DNA of 64,000 nt. Origin: a bacterium (GTDB taxonomy: Bacteria; Patescibacteriota; Dojkabacteria; SC72; WJKH01). The notes under the pieces were generated by a model that did no database searches, was not told the origin of the DNA, and worked only from the letters and a program-made list of their open reading frames with translations. The stretch spans positions 12,405 to 76,404 of the forward strand of contig JAKPPS010000028.1 of assembly GCA_029547225.1 (NCBI GenBank). Reading direction: 5' to 3'. Positions 2,112 to 18,052 of this stretch are shown here, piece by piece (within the stretch, counting starts at the first letter, position 1; each line of letters starts with the position of its first letter). The translations under genes were made by a program, and so were the position numbers.

Positions 2112-5400
<3,289 letters not shown>

Positions 5401-6853: not shown

Positions 6854-7534
6854 ATGTCCTCCAAGTCTCAAATCAAAAAGAATGCTTATTTTGCTCTGGA
6901 GCAAGTCAATAAGATTTTCCCTGAAGCACAGACAGATCTGAAAAACTGGTCAACGTCTTTTCAATTTCTTGTTTGTATTATCCTCTCTGCACAGGCAACA
7001 GATAAGCAAGTTAATAAGGTTACTCAGAAGCTTTTTGAAATTGTACCTGACCCCAAAGCGTTTATTGAGTTTACGGGTGGAAGCACAGAAAATACTAAGG
7101 ATGTTGCAAGTATTATTAATTCGTTAAATTACTATAATAGTAAGGCTCGAAATATCGTCAAAATGGCTTATGATGTATTTTATCGTTTTGGTGGAGAAGT
7201 ACCTCGAGAGCTTACTGATCTGGTTTCGCTAGCTGGAGTTGGTTATAAGACTGCAAATGTTTTCCTTAGCCATCTCTACAAAGAGAATCAAGGTATTGCT
7301 GTTGACACACATGTTTCTAGAGTTTCAAAAAGACTAGGTTTTGCAGATGAAAAAGATACTCCGATCATTATTTCTCATAAACTCGAGGATATTTTTTCTA
7401 AGCAAGATTGGCATAAGATTAGTGGGCGATTTGTACTTTTTGGTCGTTATATTTGTAAAGCAAAGAAGCCAGAATGTAAAAATTGTCCAATTAATACTAT
7501 GTGTAGTTACTACAAGAATAATACTAACTTATAG
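6854..7534 (+). CDS. nth: Endonuclease III (DNA glycosylase/AP lyase)
   Basis: HhH-GPD signatures LVCIILSAQATDKQVN and LAGVGYKTANVFL. C-terminal 4Fe-4S cysteine cluster CKAKKPECKNCPINTMC. Confidence 0.9.
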   Translation: MSSKSQIKKNAYFALEQVNKIFPEAQTDLKNWSTSFQFLVCIILSAQATDKQVNKVTQKLFEIVPDPKAFIEFTGGSTENTKDVASIINSLNYYNSKARNIVKMAYDVFYRFGGEVPRELTDLVSLAGVGYKTANVFLSHLYKENQGIAVDTHVSRVSKRLGFADEKDTPIIISHKLEDIFSKQDWHKISGRFVLFGRYICKAKKPECKNCPINTMCSYYKNNTNL

Positions 7535-9331: not shown

Positions 9332-12300
9332 TTGAATATGGTTGTTGATAATAAAAAAATATATTCTAGATTGAGTTTAAGGGCAAAAAAAGTCCTCTCA
9401 AAAGCTGCTCAGCTTGCTAATAATGAGCCTGTAAAACCAGAGCATATACTTGTTTCAATACTGTTGGAGGTTGATTCACTCGCTGTGAGTGCCTTAAAGG
9501 TTGCTCGACATAATCCGATTACCTTGATTGTAATGCTTGGCTTTGGTTCATATTTGTCAGGTTTTATAACTCCGAATAATCCTGTCGTTACTGAGAGTCT
9601 AAATATAAAGGATGTGTCTCAAGAAGAAATTAAGGATAAAAGTATCAATTTGGGAGAAAGTGTTGGTAATACTCAGATAAATGCAAAAGATGGTTTAGAC
9701 CATTTGGCACAAATTTCTGACAAAGATGCTATCAATATAGGTGATGTTCAAAGTCGTGGTGATATCGGAAATACACAAAAAGGTGATCAGACTACGGATA
9801 ATCTTAAAGCGATTTTAGGCAATGATATTAATGATGATCAGAATAATCCTTTTGATATGCAAAGATTTAAAGAGATTGTTGATGGGATCAATGCAATAGA
9901 CAATTTGGGAGCAGATGATTTGAAATCGTTAAGTGAATTAGCTCAAGGTAGCGATAGTGCTAGTACAACACAATCAAGTGATCTTGATTTGCGCAATCAC
10001 CGTCTTGATATCACGGATAATGGAGCGAATGATATTGATAATAACAATAAGGATATGGGTGGAGATAATCAAAGTATCTCCAATAAGGATTTTCAAGATA
10101 TTCTAGATAGCCAACCTCCGGTTCCAAATTCTGATGTTAATCAAGTAGGTAATTTAGTAGGTGACATTGATTTTCTTGGTGATTTAGATAAATCGTTAAT
10201 TGGCGATAGCTTAAATAATTTTGATCTTTCTGATGACAGAAATATCTCAAGCGATAATAATCAGGATAAAGATGCGGAAGGTATTGGAAGGGAAGGTAGG
10301 AGTGTAAATGCGGGTAGTGTTAACGGGATTATATCCGCTGACGAATCTCTTCTTTTTGATCTTGATAACAATCTTGATCTTGAAAAACTCAACTTGACCA
10401 ATGAAAGTAAAATAATATTGAGTATCGCTTTCCAATTAGCGAGTAAACATGATTTAGTATATGTCGGTACAGAACACCTTATGCTTGCTGTCTTAACCCA
10501 AAAAGAATTACCAATCGTTAAAGAAATGGCAAAGCGTGGTCTTACACTTGAAACATATCTTAAAGCATTATCGAGTATTGCCAGCTATCCGATTGGATTA
10601 CTTGCAAAACCTGAAGGAGCTAATCAAATAAACTCACAAACACCAATGCTGTCGCAGATAGGGGTTGATCTTGTAGAAATGGCCTATAAGGGAAAGCTTG
10701 ATCCGCTTGTCGGTCGTCAAGAAGAGATAGATCAATTAATAAATATTTTAAGTAGGAGAAAAAAGAATAATCCTATCATAGTAGGTGAAGCTGGTGTCGG
10801 AAAAACAGTTCTTGTTGAGGGTTTAGCTCAAAGGATATCAGCCGGTCAAGTTCCAGGTTCACTTATCGGTATGCGTATTATTGCTTTAGATGTTACAAAT
10901 ATTATTGCTGGAAGTAAAATGCGTGGTGATGTCGAAGAAAAAGTAATGCAGATTGTCAATGAGGCTAAGAGGAATCGAGATATAATCTTATTTATCGATG
11001 AGATACATAATATCCTAAACACTTCTTTGCCTGGTGGTGGTATGGATATTGCAACAATACTTAAACCGGCTTTGGTTAGCGGAATGATTAAATGTATCGG
11101 AGCGACAACAAGCGAAGATTTTACAAGATATTTTGAAGAGGATGAGGCATTATTAAGGAGATTTCATCCTGTCTATATTGAAGAGCCAAGTATTACTCAT
11201 AGTATCGAGATTCTACAAAGAATAAAGCCGATATTGGAAGAACATCACATGGTAAAGATTTCCGATGATGCTGTTATAGCCTCTGTCAAATTATCGGATA
11301 GATATATTAGTGATAGGTATTTACCTGATAAAGCAATCGATCTGCTGGATGAGGCTACGGCTTCAAGAAGGTTAGAATCCGAAGTGAAATATGAAGGATT
11401 GGTTGACATGGAGCTTAAACTAAATGAGACGATACATAATAAAGAGCAGGCTGTAAGAAAGGGAGACTTAGAAAAAGCAAAAATCATGCGAGATCTTGAG
11501 AATAAAATTGTTATTGAGATTGAGAACTTGAATAAACGAAGACTGAACGAGCAATATGGTACAAAATTTACTGTTGGGGTTGATACAGTAAGAAAAATAA
11601 TAGCAAAGTGGACAGGTATACCAATAGAAACAATAGATCGTGACGAAACAAAGTCTTTACTTAATCTTGATAAGCTATTGAGTCAAAGTGTTATTGGGCA
11701 AGATGATGCAGTAAAATCTGTTGCAAATGCAATAAAGAGGGCTAGGGCCGGTATTTCTTCACCTGATAGACCTTGGGCGTCATTTATGTTTCTTGGTCCT
11801 ACAGGAGTGGGTAAAACAGAATTGGCTAAGGTATTAACGAAAGTATTATTTGGTGATGAGGATAGATTGATACAAGTTGATATGAGTGAACTTATGGAAA
11901 TGCATAGTGTGTCTAAACTTATCGGATCACCTCCAGGTTATGTCGGATATCGAGAAGGTGGTCAATTAACGGAAGCTGTAAAGAAAAATCCTCACAGTGT
12001 AATACTTTTCGACGAGATCGAGAAAGCTCATCCTGATGTATTAAACATACTTTTACAAGTTTTAGAGTATGGACACCTAAAAGATGGTAAAGGAAAGAGG
12101 ATTAATTTCAAGAATACGGTTATAATTATGACTTCTAATATAGGAGCAGAAGAGATTCGAAGAAATAAGATTGCCGGCTTTACAGATAATAGAGAAAGTG
12201 AACAGAGGGGTGATAAAGACATCGAGAAATCGTACGATAGTATGAAAGAAGGCCTAATGAAGCAATTAAAAGAATCACTACGTCCAGAGTTACTTAATCG

Positions 12301-12631
12301 ACTTGATGATATTGTGATATTTAGATCTTTAAATCGTAAAGACGCTAAAAAGATTGTAATACTATTGATAGATGATTTAAATAAACGGTTGATTGAGGAG
12401 AGGGTGAGTGTAGCACTTGATGAATCAGCTATTAAAAAGATAGTTAAAGAAGGTTTCAGTGAAGAATATGGAGCTCGTCCATTAAGGCGCTTAATCCAGG
12501 ATCAGGTCGAGACTATAGTTGCAGAATATATCTTGAAAAGAGGCCATCGTGACACTAATGATAAGTTAGAAAAAATAACAGTTCATTACGTAAAGGATAA
12601 CTATGTAATAAAAAAGGGTAGTCATAAATAA
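9332..12631 (+). CDS. clpC: ClpC-type AAA+ unfoldase (Clp ATPase) with a large insertion in the N-domain
   Basis: Two Clp_N repeats (aa ~12-70 and ~352-425). Walker A motifs GEAGVGKT and GPTGVGKTELAK. Short UVR-like middle domain (KGDLEKAKIMRDLENKI). Candidate ClpP-docking loop KIAGF. Confidence 0.85.
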   Translation: MNMVVDNKKIYSRLSLRAKKVLSKAAQLANNEPVKPEHILVSILLEVDSLAVSALKVARHNPITLIVMLGFGSYLSGFITPNNPVVTESLNIKDVSQEEIKDKSINLGESVGNTQINAKDGLDHLAQISDKDAINIGDVQSRGDIGNTQKGDQTTDNLKAILGNDINDDQNNPFDMQRFKEIVDGINAIDNLGADDLKSLSELAQGSDSASTTQSSDLDLRNHRLDITDNGANDIDNNNKDMGGDNQSISNKDFQDILDSQPPVPNSDVNQVGNLVGDIDFLGDLDKSLIGDSLNNFDLSDDRNISSDNNQDKDAEGIGREGRSVNAGSVNGIISADESLLFDLDNNLDLEKLNLTNESKIILSIAFQLASKHDLVYVGTEHLMLAVLTQKELPIVKEMAKRGLTLETYLKALSSIASYPIGLLAKPEGANQINSQTPMLSQIGVDLVEMAYKGKLDPLVGRQEEIDQLINILSRRKKNNPIIVGEAGVGKTVLVEGLAQRISAGQVPGSLIGMRIIALDVTNIIAGSKMRGDVEEKVMQIVNEAKRNRDIILFIDEIHNILNTSLPGGGMDIATILKPALVSGMIKCIGATTSEDFTRYFEEDEALLRRFHPVYIEEPSITHSIEILQRIKPILEEHHMVKISDDAVIASVKLSDRYISDRYLPDKAIDLLDEATASRRLESEVKYEGLVDMELKLNETIHNKEQAVRKGDLEKAKIMRDLENKIVIEIENLNKRRLNEQYGTKFTVGVDTVRKIIAKWTGIPIETIDRDETKSLLNLDKLLSQSVIGQDDAVKSVANAIKRARAGISSPDRPWASFMFLGPTGVGKTELAKVLTKVLFGDEDRLIQVDMSELMEMHSVSKLIGSPPGYVGYREGGQLTEAVKKNPHSVILFDEIEKAHPDVLNILLQVLEYGHLKDGKGKRINFKNTVIIMTSNIGAEEIRRNKIAGFTDNRESEQRGDKDIEKSYDSMKEGLMKQLKESLRPELLNRLDDIVIFRSLNRKDAKKIVILLIDDLNKRLIEERVSVALDESAIKKIVKEGFSEEYGARPLRRLIQDQVETIVAEYILKRGHRDTNDKLEKITVHYVKDNYVIKKGSHK

Positions 12632-12701
12632 TAATTGTATATAGATTTGGGGATTTCACATTCTTTTAAATGTACGAAAGTAAATAATTTGGTCCGATAA
12701 T

Positions 12702-14297
12702 ATGATGAAGTATATATGTGCTAATTGTAATGGAGAATTTCTTGGTTGGTCTGGAAAATGCCCCAATTGTGGTCAATGGGGTACTTTGGAAGAGTATGAG
12801 GATGAAAAGGAAATCGCAAAATCAGGTAGTTCAATATATGGGAGAATAGGTTCTCGAAAAAGCAAAAAAACTGGAGTCGATGAAAGCAAGGTTCAAAATT
12901 ACTCAACATTGATAAATAAAATCCGAGAAAATGAAAGAAATAATCAGCTGTTAATGAAAGGTAAAAACGGCTCCAAATTCTCAAACAAGCAAAATTCAAA
13001 AAGTGGTGAATCGTTGTTTGGTTCAAGAATGAGCTCTGGGTATGAGGAATTCGATAGAGTTTTAGGCGGAGGATTTGTAGGTGGTGAAGTTTTGCTGTTA
13101 AGTGGTGAGCCTGGTGTAGGTAAATCGACTTTACTTCTGCAAGTTGCACTTAAGCAAGCAAACTGTGGGAAGGTACTTTATGTGTCTTGTGAGGAATCAA
13201 TCGTCCAGTTATCTCAACGTATAGAAAGGGTTGTTGTCGGCATAGAAAACGGCACTGTAAATTCCGAAGGTAAAGTTGAGGTAAAATCTGCTAATTTACC
13301 TTCCAAGGTGAATATCTCAAAGTCGGAGAATAATGAATCATATGTTGAAGAAGATGAAGGTAATGTGGCGATTAAATCTGTAAGTAAGAGGTCATCAAAA
13401 GGTGCACTTTATAGAGATAATCTATATATCACTGAAGCATCAGATATCGACGAAATTGTGGATCTGATAGAAAGCCTAAGTCCAACACTTGTGATAGTTG
13501 ACTCGATACAAGCTGTGACTTCGTCTCAATCGAGGGGTTTTCCGGGAAGTATGTCTCAGGTCAGGATCTGTGGTTCGGTGCTTACAAAAGTTGCTAAGGC
13601 AAATGATATTCCTGTGGTCATGGTTGGTCAGATAAATAAGGAGGGTTTTATTGCAGGACCAAAAATACTTGAACATATGGTTGACTGTGTGATCTATATT
13701 GAAGGTGAGGAATTTAATATCTTCCGTATTGTAAGGGGTATCAAGAATCGCTTTGGTGCGACAAATGAGATCGGTGTATTTGAGATGAGTAATTTAGGTA
13801 TGAAAGAAGTATCCAATCCTTCTCAAGTATTTCTTGAGGGCGGAGATCATGTCCCTGGTTGTGCTATCGGAGCAGTAATAAAAGGTAGTAGGGTAGTATT
13901 TGTTGAGGTTCAAGCGCTTACGGTAGATAGGGATATGTCGGGAGGTCCATTGCGTCGAGTAGCTAATGGGATAAAAAAGCCTAGGTTAGATATGCTTTGT
14001 GCTGTTTTATCTCGCAGAGGAAAGATATTTCTTGGAGATAAAGACGTGTTCGTAAATATCGTCGGAGGACTTAACTTGGATGATCCGGTGATAGATTTGG
14101 CTGTCTGTGCTGCGATAAAGTCTGTAGTCAAGGATAAACCAATAGATCGTAAAACTATCTTTGTTGGAGAGGTGGGATTGTCTGGAGAGATAAGGTCTTT
14201 TATGGGTTATGACGCAGTGAAAAAAGAGGCGACAAGATTGGGATATGAAAAGATAGTATCAAGAGCTTCTGGCGATAAGAGGATCTCAGATATCTAA
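12702..14297 (+). CDS. radA: DNA repair protein RadA/Sms
   Basis: N-terminal zinc ribbon CANCNGEFLGWSGKCPNCGQW, Walker A GEPGVGKST, KNRFG motif, and a Lon-protease-like C-terminal domain. Two low-complexity insertions. Confidence 0.9.
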   Translation: MMKYICANCNGEFLGWSGKCPNCGQWGTLEEYEDEKEIAKSGSSIYGRIGSRKSKKTGVDESKVQNYSTLINKIRENERNNQLLMKGKNGSKFSNKQNSKSGESLFGSRMSSGYEEFDRVLGGGFVGGEVLLLSGEPGVGKSTLLLQVALKQANCGKVLYVSCEESIVQLSQRIERVVVGIENGTVNSEGKVEVKSANLPSKVNISKSENNESYVEEDEGNVAIKSVSKRSSKGALYRDNLYITEASDIDEIVDLIESLSPTLVIVDSIQAVTSSQSRGFPGSMSQVRICGSVLTKVAKANDIPVVMVGQINKEGFIAGPKILEHMVDCVIYIEGEEFNIFRIVRGIKNRFGATNEIGVFEMSNLGMKEVSNPSQVFLEGGDHVPGCAIGAVIKGSRVVFVEVQALTVDRDMSGGPLRRVANGIKKPRLDMLCAVLSRRGKIFLGDKDVFVNIVGGLNLDDPVIDLAVCAAIKSVVKDKPIDRKTIFVGEVGLSGEIRSFMGYDAVKKEATRLGYEKIVSRASGDKRISDI

Positions 14298-14844
14298 GAA
14301 AAGTATTAACTGGCTAATTCGCATTCGTTATTGTATTTTTTTCCTAAACTAGCTTTGCTGGTATTAATCGACTAAATTTCCATATATTTTATGTAACCAA
14401 GGGCTATCATTCTGCCTGAACCGTCACCATTACAATCCAAGCGCTTTGCCATACAAGTACCGCCTTCACGTTAAAAAAATAAAGTTACGATGGAAGGGTT
14501 TTACTTGAGTAAGACAAATTAATTTTATTGGTCTTGCGATACATAGTGAAATGTATTTAGTTAGGGTAAATCGCTTAATTGATTTATAAGTATTTCGAGG
14601 TTTCTAGCTTTACTAAATATCCGAGAGATACCGTCTTACCAACGTAGAAGAGCAATCGTAACATTGTGTCCATGTTACTTATCCACACCAATCGTAACAG
14701 CGAGGTTCTGTTTAATGGGAAACATAACAAACGTATTTGGTAAGTCGTATGATGTTGTTGTAAACTGTTGGTGTGTGGGGAAATAGGTGACCAGGAAGTC
14801 ATTCTCCACATATAACCCTAATATGTTGATAATAGATATGGGGC

Positions 14845-14873
14845 TTGACATATAATAGCTGGAGGGTTATAAT
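14845..14873 (+). promoter_or_regulatory. Perfect sigma-70 consensus promoter with no ORF downstream
   Basis: TTGACA (14845-14850), 17-nt spacer, TATAAT (14868-14873). Confidence 0.7.
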
Positions 14874-14879
14874 TATATA

Positions 14880-15088
14880 GATCATTAAAAATATGTGGAT
14901 AGTTGTTCTCTCCCTATGTCTGGGGTGCCATAAGCACAGCTGGGCATCAGGAAAGGATAATTATCTCATGTTTGGTAGCACTTCTTTTTAGAAATATAAG
15001 GGAAGTATCGCTGATACTCTTCGATAATTCAGAATGTTAGTTCTAAATTACCGGGGTCGGTCGGGGCAGTGCCGATCCCTTTTTTTTT
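14880..15088 (+). ncRNA. Candidate ~200-nt structured small RNA, class not recognised
   Basis: Bounded by the consensus promoter and the terminator at 15053-15088. Internal hairpins at 15004-15018 (AGTATC/GATACT) and 15026-15049. No ORF. Clearly less AT-rich than typical spacers here. Confidence 0.5.
15053..15088 (+). terminator. Intrinsic terminator
   Basis: GGGGTCGG-TCGGGGCAGTG-CCGATCCC hairpin (one G:U pair) followed by a T9 run. Confidence 0.8.
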
Positions 15089-15091
15089 CAT

Positions 15092-15120
15092 TTGACACGA
15101 TATATTTAACTTTGTATAAT
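15092..15120 (+). promoter_or_regulatory. Perfect sigma-70 consensus promoter, presumably for rho (~250-nt leader)
   Basis: TTGACA (15092-15097), 17-nt spacer, TATAAT (15115-15120). It starts 4 nt after the preceding terminator. Confidence 0.65.
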
Positions 15121-15368
15121 TTTTTAGTTTTACTTAGCACTAGTTAAGTAAGGTAATTTCCTTTATTAAGTTTCTCCTTCGATAGTGCTTTACATTGTTT
15201 ATGAATTAAATTTTTCATTTTTGATTAGTCCCAAATGTTTATTAAGTTTGCGGATTGTCAATTTATTCAAGGTATAAAATAAACCACTTATACAAGATTT
15301 ATGAAAATTATCCCTATTTAGTAATTTTATGTTGTGATTAGAAATTAATTTATTTTTTATATATTTTT

Positions 15369-16619
15369 ATGCAGATTAAAGAGTTAGAGGACAAAACAGT
15401 TGCCGAATTAAGAGCAATTGCAAAAGATCTTGGTATTACAGATTTCGTCGAAATGCCAAAGAGAGATTTAATTATTGAGATTTTGAAAGTATCTTCACAA
15501 AAAGAAGGTTTTGTTTTTATGGAGGGTATTTTGGAAATCATGAATGATGGTACTCATGGGATCTTGCGAACGGAAGGTGTTTTACCAAGTGATAATGATG
15601 TTTATATTTCAGGTTCACAAATCAAGAAGTTTAATCTGCGTATGGGTGATATTGTTGCAGGACCTGCACGTTTACCAAAAGATAAAGAAAAATATCTTAG
15701 TTTATTGCGAGTTGATACAGTTTACGGAAAACCAGCTGATGAAGCTCTTAAAAGGCCTATGTTTCATAAACTTACTGCAATTTTCCCAAATAAACAGATA
15801 AAATTGGAGACTGATGCAGAGACTCTTTCAACTAGACTTATTGATCTTTTGAGCCCCGTAGGATTTGGACAGAGAGGTATGATCGTATCTCCTCCAAAAG
15901 CCGGTAAAACCTGGTTAATGAAGGATATAGCAAAGGGTGTTGCAGAAAACTATCCTAAAGCAAAACTTATGGTCGTGCTAGTTGGTGAAAGGCCAGAAGA
16001 GGTTACTGACATGAAGCGATTTGTTAAGGGTGAAGTTTTTGCTTCAAATTTTGATGAAATGCCAGAACATAACTGTAGAGTAGCTGAAATGGCACTTGAA
16101 AAAGCTAAGCGAATGGTTGAGTGGGGTGAAGATGTTGTTATACTTATGGATAGTATTACAAGATTAGCTCGTGCTTACAATATTACAATGCCTACTTCAG
16201 GTCGTACATTATCTGGCGGTTTTGATCCAGTTGCTTTGTATCCTCCAAAAAGATTCTTTGGAGCAGCACGAAATTTTGAAGAGGGTGGAAGTCTTACAAT
16301 CATGGCAACTGCATTAGTTGATACTGGTAGCCGTATGGATGATTTAGTGTATGAAGAATTCAAGGGTACTGGTAATATGGAATTACATCTCGATCGTAAA
16401 CTTTCACAAAAAAGAGTATATCCTGCAATCAATGTTACAGAATCAGGTACTCGAAATGAAGAGTTTTTGCTTGGCAAAGATGTTCTTAATCAATCATGGA
16501 GGATTCGTAGAATGCTTGAGGTTTTAAGTGAAAACGAGGAACCAACAGAAGTATTAGTTTCCAGGATGAAGAGGACAAAGAATAATGAGGAGTTTTTAGC
16601 GACATTGCACGAAGCTTAA
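15369..16619 (+). CDS. rho: Transcription termination factor Rho
   Basis: Rho_N (VAELRAIAKDLGI), OB/CSD-like RNA-binding domain, Walker A PPKAGKT, and RecA-type ATPase core conserved throughout the 416 aa. Confidence 0.95.
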   Translation: MQIKELEDKTVAELRAIAKDLGITDFVEMPKRDLIIEILKVSSQKEGFVFMEGILEIMNDGTHGILRTEGVLPSDNDVYISGSQIKKFNLRMGDIVAGPARLPKDKEKYLSLLRVDTVYGKPADEALKRPMFHKLTAIFPNKQIKLETDAETLSTRLIDLLSPVGFGQRGMIVSPPKAGKTWLMKDIAKGVAENYPKAKLMVVLVGERPEEVTDMKRFVKGEVFASNFDEMPEHNCRVAEMALEKAKRMVEWGEDVVILMDSITRLARAYNITMPTSGRTLSGGFDPVALYPPKRFFGAARNFEEGGSLTIMATALVDTGSRMDDLVYEEFKGTGNMELHLDRKLSQKRVYPAINVTESGTRNEEFLLGKDVLNQSWRIRRMLEVLSENEEPTEVLVSRMKRTKNNEEFLATLHEA

Positions 16620-16645
16620 ATATCGTAAATATGGTATAATGCAAT

Positions 16646-18052
16646 ATGCCGATTGAAAATGAAGCTAAAAAAATAATAGGATTCCAAGGTTTTAGGCAGT
16701 TGGTTAAAGATCTGGACATGATTAATAATGAACAAGATGGGCCTGCTTATCTTCTCAATGACTTCAGTAATACTGAGGATCAGAAAAAAAATTCAAAAAA
16801 CCGATTTAAGCCGTTTCTATTTATTTCTCAAAAAAGGCGTGAGTTAAGTACAAAGCTTTCTCCGATTTCATTTATTATCCAGCTTGATAATTATATATAT
16901 GAACGCCTAAGGGTTTTCATTGTCTTATTATCTGTTTTTTCTGAATTTTTAGGTTCGATTGTTGATAGGGTAAAAAGATTTATTATCCGGAAGATGTTTT
17001 GGGGCCGAAGTAATGCTTTCAAATATGTACTAAATATTATCATTATTTTTTTTGTGAGTTTCCTTTTCATTTCTAATTCTTACCGTGTAGATGTAATTGA
17101 AACAGGGCAGGCTTTTGGTTTGAATAATCGTGTATATGCACAAGAAGAACCACTAGTAAGTCACGATATCCTTGTACAAAATACGACAACTAATACTCAA
17201 ACTCCTGTTGATCGCCAAAGCATAGATATCGTAGAATACACTGTTAAGAGTGGTGATACGATGAGTGGAATTGCAAACTTTTTCGGCGTTTCCGAACAAA
17301 CAATCAAATGGGTTAATGACTTGAGTGATGCATATGTTTTGCAACCTGGGCAGGTATTGAAAGTTCCTCCAGTCGACGGCGTTTTAGTTAAAGTAGAGTC
17401 GGGAGATACAATTGAGTCTTTGGCAGATGATTATGAGGGCAATATTCAATCTATTGCTGATTTTAACTGGTTAGACTATCCTTTTACTCTCACAGAGGGT
17501 ACAGAAGTATTTATTCCTAATGGAAAGAAACCTGAACCAGTTGTTCCAGTAGCCTCATATTATTCTGGTGTTGTTACAAGTTCTGCACCTTGGTGGAGTG
17601 CTTCGTATGTTGATCCAAATGTTGGTAGATTTTTAAGTTGGCCTGTAGCAGGTGGTCGAGGTATTATAACCCAATATCCTTGGACTTACCATATTGCTTT
17701 AGATATTGCGGATGGTGGATCTCCAGATCTTGTTGCTGCTGCTCCTGGTACTGTAGTATTTGCAGGTTGTCATTCAGGAAACTGTCCTGCACCAGGTTAT
17801 TCAATTGGTGGTTCTGGAGCGGGTTGGGGTGTCGAGGTAGATCATGGAAATGGTTATACAACATTGTATGCTCATATGAATGCAATCTATGTAACTTCCG
17901 GTCAATATGTTTCTGCCGGACAGCCTCTTGGTCAGATGGGTCGTTCTGGTACGGCGACTGGTATCCATGTTCATTTCGAATTGTGGCAAGGTGCTAAATG
18001 GAATCGTGTTGATCCTTGTTTGTATCTTGGTAATTATGCGTGTGGTTACTAA
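16646..18052 (+). CDS. Membrane-anchored LysM / M23 family peptidoglycan endopeptidase
   Basis: TM segment, then two LysM repeats (YTVKSGDTMSGIANFFGV, VKVESGDTIESLADDY). M23 motifs HIALDIA, GYTTLYAHM and GIHVHFEL. Confidence 0.85.
   Translation: MPIENEAKKIIGFQGFRQLVKDLDMINNEQDGPAYLLNDFSNTEDQKKNSKNRFKPFLFISQKRRELSTKLSPISFIIQLDNYIYERLRVFIVLLSVFSEFLGSIVDRVKRFIIRKMFWGRSNAFKYVLNIIIIFFVSFLFISNSYRVDVIETGQAFGLNNRVYAQEEPLVSHDILVQNTTTNTQTPVDRQSIDIVEYTVKSGDTMSGIANFFGVSEQTIKWVNDLSDAYVLQPGQVLKVPPVDGVLVKVESGDTIESLADDYEGNIQSIADFNWLDYPFTLTEGTEVFIPNGKKPEPVVPVASYYSGVVTSSAPWWSASYVDPNVGRFLSWPVAGGRGIITQYPWTYHIALDIADGGSPDLVAAAPGTVVFAGCHSGNCPAPGYSIGGSGAGWGVEVDHGNGYTTLYAHMNAIYVTSGQYVSAGQPLGQMGRSGTATGIHVHFELWQGAKWNRVDPCLYLGNYACGY

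Follow-up and report, generated by a model that had tools for sequence, protein, structure and literature searches.

Dojkabacteria carry, between radA and rho, a gene for a structured RNA of about 210 nucleotides (nt), which we consider almost certain to be genuine and to represent a new RNA family. We analyzed this gene in a 64,000-nt stretch of one dojkabacterial genome (contig JAKPPS010000028.1), referred to here as the window, where it occupies positions 14878-15088 of the + strand. A structured, independently transcribed non-coding RNA of ∼200 nt had already been proposed at this site in an earlier note on the window, and the proposal was borne out, since all related genomes examined conserve the promoter and terminator of the unit and its helices show covariation. 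The unit is not, however, the orphan it had been taken for: it is a fixed, syntenic gene, and there are also phage copies of it. Two of its features had escaped the earlier note altogether, namely, a 5' end that resembles the boxA signal of rRNA operons and the sequence invariance of the terminator hairpin, P5, including its loop. We favor the explanation that the gene product is a free-standing, Nus-linked structured RNA whose P5 hairpin would bind a conserved factor, and on the sequence evidence we give this explanation a probability of about one half.

The RNA gene between radA and rho

For comparison, we used the loci of the 80 closest Rho relatives (77 to 82% identity) in a species-level genome collection, all of them from metagenome-assembled genomes and most labeled Candidatus Dojkabacteria or candidate division WS6. 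A covariance model, R1, built from 61 sequences (244 positions, 52 pairs), had a single match in the window, at 14878-15088 of the + strand, with 170 bits and an E value of ∼1e-32 to 1e-35. Exactly one + strand copy was found between radA and rho in each of the Dojkabacteria loci with enough upstream DNA (76/76), with scores of 170 to 234 bits per locus, compared to only 17 to 37 bits for antisense matches. The neighboring proteins are less conserved (RadA, ∼48% identical; M23 peptidase, ∼40% identical; versus 100% for P5), so that constraint on the RNA is tighter than on the proteins beside it. A single conserved copy per locus, combined with covarying helices, identifies the unit as a gene rather than a chance arrangement.

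The family was also found in more distant lineages. A wider scan of metagenomic DNA for the exact P5-core pattern yielded at least 118 stretches, in most of which the order radA-RNA-rho is kept. Many of these stretches come from lineages in which Rho is 54 to 69%, RadA 33 to 43%, and the 3' part of 23S rRNA 75 to 84% identical, and R1 scores of 40 to 97 bits were obtained in these diverged lineages. Synteny breaks in some lineages, where the RNA follows radA but stands ahead of an RHH-type gene, and in another lineage, where it lies near transfer-messenger RNA (tmRNA) and tRNAs with neither radA nor rho close by. No neighboring protein was common to all contexts examined, and we therefore propose no protein partner. 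Metagenome and viral matches located in GC-rich coding DNA (L092, L104, L111, L153, L201, L202, and L204) were discarded as chance, and GenBank phages and plasmids contained no similar DNA. As far as we searched, no RNA of this kind has been described in the literature on candidate phyla radiation (CPR) bacteria, Patescibacteria, or Dojkabacteria.

The promoter of the gene (14845-14873, + strand) is composed of the -35 element TTGACA (14845-14850), a 17-nt spacer, and the -10 element TATAAT (14868-14873) and agrees with the sigma-70 consensus at 12 of 12 positions, as the earlier note had stated. Only two such perfect matches exist in the 64 kb, the second at 15092-15120, whereas 0.06 would be expected from shuffles. 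TTGACA-N16-18-TATAAT/TATACT is present at the same position in 70 related loci and also in more distant lineages. The RNA body (∼210 nt, + strand) is predicted to start ∼6 to 8 nt past the -10 element and to end at an intrinsic terminator, whose earlier description was confirmed: an 8-bp stem with GGGGTCGG at 15053-15060 and CCGATCCC at 15072-15079 encloses an 11-nt loop and is followed by a U9 tract (T9 in DNA; 15080-15088). P5 and U9 together form the sole terminator-like site within 12000-18000. In relatives, the equivalents of the U tract are pyrimidine rich and less perfect, e.g., UUCUUCUUU. A sigma-70 promoter and an intrinsic terminator, which together delimit an independent transcription unit with predicted ends, were thus both found, and both are conserved in position among relatives. 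The G+C content is 0.38 to 0.45 across the unit versus 0.20 to 0.24 in the spacer at 15100-15350, in agreement with the previous impression that the interval is less AT-rich than local spacers. The unit is flanked by a RadA-like gene upstream (12702-14297) and the rho open reading frame (ORF) downstream (15369-16619; assigned to rho by Pfam), and the conserved gene order is clpC-radA-RNA-rho-M23 peptidase.

The + strand at 14880-15088 folds to -69.7 kcal/mol (z = -4.8 versus shuffles), and in the consensus fold five local hairpins, P1 to P5, succeed one another behind an unpaired 5' end. P1, the "module" hairpin, spans 14900-14963 and contains an outer stem (14900-14909/14954-14963), a UCC/GGA helix (14911-14913/14950-14952), a small internal loop (14914-14915/14948-14949) that in most relatives is a single conserved C mismatch, and an inner stem (14916-14923/14940-14947) with an invariant tandem U-G/G-U plus G-C, capped by an apex at 14925-14937. 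Across the family, the module consensus reads CCC-N3-GNYUGG-(variable apex)-CUGRNC-N3/4-GG. The following variable linker (14964-14999) is the position of P2, which is degenerate in the window and in most relatives is a second hairpin, often a second module copy. P3 (GGGAAGUAU...AUACUCUUC; 15000-15022) leads into the conserved junction CUUCGAU (15019-15025), and P4 (15023-15051) directly abuts P5 (15052-15079), whose stem, at 15053-15060/15072-15079, includes one G-U pair and whose 11-nt loop, UCGGGGCAGUG, occupies 15061-15071. All of these elements lie on the + strand. Two hairpins noticed before, at 15004-15018 and 15026-15049, proved to be the cores of P3 and P4. A long-range pairing that had been suggested between CTCTCCCTAT and ATAAGGGAAG did not hold up, as CTCTCCC pairs locally with GGAAAGG inside P1 and GGGAAG belongs to P3; a palindrome, GATAATTATC, is present, but merely as the 3' strand of the outer P1 stem and not as a separate element.

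As a check on its proposal, the earlier note had named an alignment of radA-rho spacers, and in this alignment the unit was indeed conserved and P1, P3, and P4 covaried. Among the 72 aligned Dojkabacteria sequences, 94.4% of cells were paired and 30 of the 52 pairs showed compensatory double changes, a level reached in none of 500 shuffles (0/500); pairing fell to 44 to 54% when partners were slid (39 to 54% over both alignments). The separate, diverged set of 43 sequences gave 94.9% paired cells and double changes in 40/52 pairs, values again reached in 0/500 shuffles. The covariation is carried by the outer stem of P1, by P3, and by P4. For P1, 24 pairs were 98.7% paired and 14 had compensatory double changes in the 72 Dojkabacteria, and in the diverged lineages double changes affected 17/21 pairs, with the U-G/G-U/G-C trio invariant. 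The 8 pairs of P3 were 94.9% paired, 5 of them with double changes, and the C, G, and A of CUUCGAU were >90% conserved, while P4 showed compensatory double changes in 11/11 pairs in both alignments. G-U pairs are conserved on the + strand only. We thus found both signs by which a structured non-coding RNA is recognized, i.e., compensatory changes in helices and no conserved reading frame.

From genome to genome the module has been duplicated, lost, or swapped, and nearly all genomes retain one complete copy. Module units were seen at 3491-3587 and 3648-3876 in L068, two tandem modules were seen in L091 and L125, and in L031 and L063 P1 is missing and only the P2-type module is retained. Exceptions to the complete-module rule are units consisting of P5 only (L081 and L175) and phage copies consisting of the 3' part only. 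We also observed that subgroups differ in concert in the pyrimidine tail past P5 and in the purine-rich strand 5' of P3 (columns ∼165-180 versus 288-296 of alignment A3; ∼14985-14999 versus 15080-15088 in the window), AAGAAGAAG occurring together with UUCUUCUUU and GGAAAAGGGG together with AACCCUUUC. Given this co-variation, the tail resembles the 5' strand of P2; the joint change could reflect alternative pairing or shared ancestry, two possibilities that phylogeny confounds.

The unit had been thought to be free of ORFs. Short ORFs do exist in it, one of 32 amino acids (aa; 14893-14991) and one of 45 aa (14903-15040), and either might in principle encode a small protein. Neither is conserved, however: among 72 homologues, the length of the longest ORF varies between 12 and 65 aa, and the frames, starts (mostly GTG/TTG), and peptides differ. 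The RNA lengths cover all three residues modulo 3, and the variation tracks base pairing rather than codons. We accordingly rejected the protein-coding reading, the chances of which we consider negligible.

A strongly diverged housekeeping RNA, such as 6S RNA, signal recognition particle (SRP; 4.5S) RNA, or RNase P RNA, that the Rfam models had missed would fit the extreme conservation, the strong promoter, the single copy per genome, and the occurrence of phage copies, and in some lineages the apical sequences loosely resemble SRP helix 8 (GGUYCGG..GAAGC). However, Rfam 15 returned nothing at gathering score in 14298-15368. At E≤10, with 4227 families, the window gave only three chance matches (to small nucleolar RNA or tsr24 models), none of which spans the RNA body, there was no match on the RNA in 7 diverse homologues, and no family matched the RNA in 13 non-syntenic loci. 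The RNA is therefore not a member of a well-known family, and the previous judgment by eye that it is not tmRNA, RNase P RNA, or SRP RNA agrees with the scan. Of the two identities that had been left standing, a lineage-restricted small RNA (sRNA) was upheld and 6S RNA was not supported, because there is neither a rod with a central bubble nor a helix closing the 5' and 3' ends; RF00013 was likewise without a match. Regarding SRP RNA, the alignments contain no GNAR tetraloop with an AGG/AGCA symmetric loop, a search for the SRP-core motif over 1.7 Mb of related DNA found nothing relevant, and the SRP-like letters vary across the family. The RNase P P4 strands are absent from the RNA. When compared by hand with SRP helix 8, RNase P P4, the sarcin-ricin/loop-E motif, the T-loop, and the hammerhead core, the RNA showed only loose, non-conserved likenesses. 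Finally, ARAGORN found no tmRNA in the window, and in three loci (L088, L098, and L113) a canonical tmRNA is encoded separately, 0.4 to 2.5 kb from the RNA. Overall, a missed housekeeping RNA appears very improbable.

The boxA-like 5' end and the DNA around the promoter

Near its 5' end the RNA carries a single-stranded motif, GAUCAUUAAAAAU (14880-14892, + strand), that is boxA-like and represents a putative NusB/NusE loading site. As a reference for boxA, we used the organism's own rRNA boxA, an approach taken from PMC7665894; the window begins inside 16S, and the reference here was the 16S end together with the 16S-23S spacer. Two elements were found in this region, GCUCUUUUAAAUA after 16S (∼1529-1541) and GUUCAUUAAAAUC past the spacer tRNAs and ahead of 23S (1980-1992), and GAUCAUUAAAAAU resembles both. 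The corresponding conserved single strand at the 5' end of relatives is (A)G(U/A)UCUUUAA, or AGAUCUUUAACAACAA in L085, and the first dozen nt of the RNA resembled the rRNA boxA of the same genome in 6 of the 7 genomes in which both were readable. The boxA core motif was present at the 5' end of 39/72 and 17/44 RNAs, compared to 3% of random windows, which corresponds to a 13- to 18-fold enrichment. A match to the genome's own rRNA boxA near the start of an untranslated transcript, which is how a boxA is recognized in sequence, was thus found, and the 5' end of the RNA is probably a working boxA.

In rrn operons, boxA of the E. coli type is UGCUCUUUA (PMC2724277), and NusB/NusE recognize 8 nt of boxA (PMC3177189). 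BoxA also acts in the suhB 5' untranslated region (UTR) and ahead of CRISPR arrays, where it modulates Rho (PMC5725501 and PMC7665894), and non-coding RNAs were not surveyed for boxA in PMC5725501. Downstream of the boxA-like motif of our RNA, just 5' of the first helix, lies the conserved UGUGGAUA (14894-14901, + strand), the columns of which are >90% conserved; TGTGGA is found at +5 to +30 in 56/66 relatives. We take this UGUGGAU just past boxA to be reminiscent of E. coli boxC, as a lead only. The conserved UGUGGAUA could be either boxC-like in RNA or DnaA-box-like in DNA. We further observed that a 15-nt sequence, ACCGGGGTNGGTCGG, occurs only twice in the 64 kb (0.02 expected), at 15050-15064 in P5 and at 2035-2049 in the 16S-23S spacer, 45 nt past the spacer boxA. 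Relatives' spacers read GAGGTAGGTCCAAT there, and the long identity between P5 and the spacer is therefore specific to this genome.

At the DNA level, four DnaA-box-like 9-mers are located within 224 bp (14679-14902), at 14679-14687 and 14802-14810 on the + strand and at 14824-14832 and 14894-14902 on the - strand, one of the four being a perfect TTATCCACA, and this cluster flanks the RNA promoter; the 64 kb contain 31 such sites. The reverse complement of UGUGGAUA, CTATCCACA, is one mismatch away from TTATCCACA. In relatives, TGTGGA occurs at ∼-55 (36/66) and ∼+18 (56/66) and TCCACA at ∼-160 (26/66). In the same region, an octamer, TCGTAACA, is present at 14655-14662 and 14691-14698, and in relatives it lies ∼125 to 155 nt upstream of the RNA start. 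These repeats are often 28 nt apart and often take the form ATCCACA-N4-TCGTAACA; they were seen in 35/72 genomes, against a background of 0.06 per kb. At the site the GC skew keeps its sign, the flanking genes, including the rRNA operon, are co-directional through it, and none of the products encoded in the window has a DnaA signature motif; these observations speak against a replication origin. With no GC-skew switch and no dnaA gene nearby, the DnaA-box cluster may represent an operator or a site of DnaA titration instead of an origin, and control of the RNA promoter by DnaA or through another operator is possible to judge from these sites.

The P5 hairpin, its phage-like copies, and the favored explanation

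Each of the related loci with sufficient upstream DNA contained the hairpin GGGGTCGGTYGGGGCAGTRCCGATCCC, loop included (75/75), and all 9 P5 pairs are invariant or nearly so. In two loci, L081 (∼3860-3935) and L175 (∼3430-3510), we observed units of P5 only, in which a consensus-like promoter is followed within ∼10 nt by P5 and then by another promoter; the stem of P5 is longer and compensated there, and the module and P3-P4 are absent. A promoter that leads directly into P5 alone indicates that P5 is the core of the family.

Five phage-like loci were found to contain the RNA family, either as whole copies or as 3'-terminal ones. L200 (2290-2475, - strand) contains a promoter, the boxA-like GAUCUUCCAAAAA, the module, and P5 without a U tract and is positioned upstream of, and co-directional with, a replication-initiator gene. 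In L199 (10615-10844), P4-P5 follow a 39-codon hydrophobic ORF and stand ahead of a RecE-like operon, in L120 (1763-2019) the module and P5 lie just upstream of the terminase small subunit, and in L188 (1094-1242) P5 alone comes after a polynucleotide kinase gene. The copy in L203 (∼6950-7060), which separates recombination genes from an HNH endonuclease gene, consists of boxA UAGCUCUUUAAAAC, a hairpin, and the P5 loop, which keeps 4 bp of the P5 stem within a different outer helix, again without a U tract. The phage contexts are at or near the starts of operons, next to replication-initiator, RecE/RecT, terminase, and HNH genes. The association of boxA with the P5 core in phages, without a U tract, argues that P5 is recognized for its sequence and not merely as a terminator. 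Judged by its invariant loop, by the phage copies that have no U tract, and by the existence of a P5-only unit, P5 is more than a terminator, and it plausibly binds a conserved factor that phages exploit.

The phage-like loci that contain the 3' part only (P4-P5 in L199 and P5 in L188) recall the attP of tRNA-targeting integrases. Conservation could act mainly on the DNA, with P5 as a phage attachment or recombination site or with the region as a DnaA-box cluster or origin-like element and with the transcript as incidental; the four 9-mers within 224 bp, the TGTGGA/TCCACA sites at ∼-160, -55, and +18, and the upstream TCGTAACA repeats would be in line with this idea. However, the covariation in P1, P3, and P4 is that of an RNA, and G-U pairs in these helices are strand specific. 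Promoter and terminator are conserved as well, inspection of the surroundings of the phage copies revealed no integrase, and a host would have no reason to conserve an attB. The unchanged sign of the GC skew, the co-directional genes, and the lack of a DnaA signature in the window argue further against an origin-like element. We consider such DNA-level conservation highly unlikely.

Another explanation would be a trans-acting base-pairing sRNA whose 5' motif or P5 loop pairs with target mRNAs. The architecture of the gene, with its own promoter, several hairpins, and a Rho-independent terminator, is typical of such RNAs, and conserved unpaired stretches are present. Nevertheless, base-pairing sRNAs rarely keep 27 invariant nt where neighboring proteins are 40 to 50% identical, complements of the P5 loop occur in the window at chance level (5 versus 4.7 expected), the 5' motif is better explained as boxA, and phages reuse the hairpin in cis, all of which makes this explanation unlikely.

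We therefore return to the favored explanation, a free-standing, Nus-linked RNA. A strongly transcribed stand-alone sRNA gene at 14878-15088 of the + strand would give rise to a transcript whose first dozen nt serve as boxA, and NusB/NusE (S10) would load there on the nascent RNA, along with NusG, NusA, and the rest of the complex, as on rRNA. The loaded complex would shield this RNA, which is not translated, from Rho and might also guide how it folds. Phages that carry boxA plus the module or P5 at operon heads, without a U tract, would use the same host factor in the fashion of a nut site. The cellular RNA would be a stable stand-alone carrier of antitermination-type signals and might act as a partner or regulator of the transcription-elongation or ribosome-biogenesis machinery.

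Several points weigh against this explanation. Both transcript ends are known by prediction only, and an RNA of 210 nt is short to need protection from Rho. BoxA was assigned by similarity only, some lineages (L097, L113, L088, and L146) have no clear boxA, and the conserved UGUGGAU could be a DNA operator instead of an RNA signal. In the metagenome set an invariant P5 was a precondition of the search pattern, covariation is missing from P5 for want of any variation, and there is no candidate binding protein among the neighbors. Lastly, there are only five phage-like loci, and some of them could be attachment sites or 3'-end elements.

The position of the RNA raises the possibility of a cis-acting processive-antitermination or attenuation leader, of the rrn-leader, nut, or put type, that serves rho and whatever genes follow it. 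In such a leader, polymerase with Nus factors acquired at boxA, or with a factor bound at P5, would pass P5/U9, whereas unmodified polymerase would stop. The boxA at the 5' end agrees with this model, as do the location of the RNA upstream of, and co-directional with, rho in most lineages, even where Rho is 54 to 69% identical, the co-directional downstream gene in all other visible contexts except the P5-only phage copy in L188, the imperfect U tracts of many relatives (UUCUUCUUU and ACUCUUUCU), and the placement of phage copies in operon leaders or gaps. However, genes in this genome are mostly co-oriented anyway, and rho has a promoter of its own: a perfect consensus begins 4 nt past the U tract in the window (15092-15120, + strand), and TTGAC(A/T)-N17-TATACT/TATAAT is found 10 to 35 nt past the tail in 76/76 related loci, which would be redundant if read-through fed rho. 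A nut or rrn leader runs into its genes with neither a terminator of its own nor a new promoter in between; this arrangement was seen only in L200 and L203 and neither in the window nor in any of the 76 relatives (76/76). Where synteny breaks, moreover, the RNA is followed by other genes (for an RHH protein, a Zn-ribbon protein, or hypothetical proteins) and is thus not tied to rho. We prefer a stand-alone RNA to a rho leader because a full promoter follows the tail in every relative, because the window tail is a perfect U9, and because the RNA persists without rho as a neighbor. The leader model nonetheless keeps a minor but real share of our confidence, owing to the imperfect U tracts in many relatives and to the very widely kept order of RNA and rho.

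It is also conceivable, albeit with a low probability, that the RNA works in trans as a "nut-like" decoy or regulator, which by titration or delivery of Nus factors and of the hairpin-binding factor balances antitermination against the product of the neighboring rho gene, with phages copying the hairpin for termination-resistant operons. A parallel for such a decoy is 6S RNA, which mimics an open promoter to regulate RNA polymerase.

Flanking genes and comparison with known systems

Further observations concern the surroundings of the RNA gene. The rho 5' UTR (within 15092-15368 of the window, an interval that begins with the rho promoter) is ∼245 nt long and very A+T-rich (G+C, 0.20 to 0.24), compared to ∼75 to 95 nt in relatives. 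Relatives have a small GGG..CCC hairpin and the motif AAUUUCCC shortly before the rho start codon, and a similar motif is found at ∼15152-15162 in the window. The ClpC/ClpB-like ORF (9332-12631; 1099 codons) matches relatives and Pfam domains only from around residue 360, and its first third may be a lineage-specific extension, the result of a wrong start, or a separate sequence. The regions upstream of long ORFs have no Shine-Dalgarno sequence (e.g., at the starts 16646, 24981, and 53529), and the 3' end of 16S is canonical (ACCUCCUUUCU). Several ATGs lie 4 to 8 nt past a TATAAT-like hexamer, a spacing suggestive of mRNAs with no leader or a very short one. The 23S rRNA gene (2113-5400) measures 3288 nt, versus 2925 positions in the model, and contains several insertions (e.g., 70-nt and 19-nt blocks in domain I); long insertions in 23S rRNA are typical of CPR bacteria and have been reported for them.

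To our knowledge, CPR bacteria, to which the ultra-small Dojkabacteria belong and which have tiny genomes, have almost no experimentally studied RNA biology. An RNA that remains nearly letter-perfect while neighboring proteins drift to 35 to 50% identity likely has a central role. The hairpin shared with phages offers a handle on phage transcription control and a marker linking phages to unculturable hosts, and R1 makes it possible to annotate, in these genomes, a gene overlooked by current pipelines.

Among known systems, the RNA is similar to the rrn antitermination leader (boxB-boxA-boxC; Nus factor/rrnTAC) in having a strong promoter followed by a boxA that matches the rRNA-spacer boxA of the same genome and in being an untranslated, structured transcript. 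The UGUGG-rich element a few nt past boxA may add a boxC-like feature to this resemblance. Unlike an rrn leader, the RNA stops after ∼210 nt at its own terminator rather than leading into rRNA, and its conserved long hairpin and invariant 3' hairpin have no known rrn counterpart.

The phage copies in L200, L203, and L120, which join a boxA-like motif with family hairpins at or near operon starts without a U tract, are similar to the nut sites of lambda (boxA plus boxB bound by N), to put of HK022, and to EAR of Bacillus. As in boxB and put, a hairpin with a conserved loop suggests recognition by a protein or by RNA polymerase. In contrast to these elements, the same hairpin exists in the hosts as part of a fixed, single-copy chromosomal gene with its own terminator, and no N-like protein gene was seen beside the phage copies. 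Neither in sequence nor by Rfam does the RNA resemble boxB, put, or EAR, and antitermination is proposed here only by analogy.

The suhB 5' UTR and the leaders of CRISPR arrays are further cases in which boxA starts a non-rRNA transcript and modulates Rho on untranslated RNA (PMC5725501 and PMC7665894). Here, by contrast, boxA heads a short, discrete, highly structured RNA gene rather than an mRNA leader or a long array. If this boxA works, the gene would be the first known case of a discrete sRNA gene based on the antitermination signal of rRNA, and the reach of Nus-factor biology would extend beyond rRNA, suhB, and CRISPR arrays and be tied to the adjacent rho gene. To 6S RNA, the RNA is similar in size and in its abundance-type promoter, and a role as a decoy that mimics a nucleic-acid signal of the transcription machinery is conceivable.

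Finally, Weinberg et al. reportedly described in 2010, by comparative genomics, phylum-restricted structured sRNAs such as Bacteroidales-1, Chlorobi-1, and Acido-1. The RNA described here is alike in that it is encoded by a free-standing promoter-to-terminator gene, has covarying helices, belongs to one lineage, and has no assigned function. It differs from RNAs of this type in matching no Rfam family and in additionally having a boxA-like 5' end, an invariant terminator hairpin, and copies in phages.

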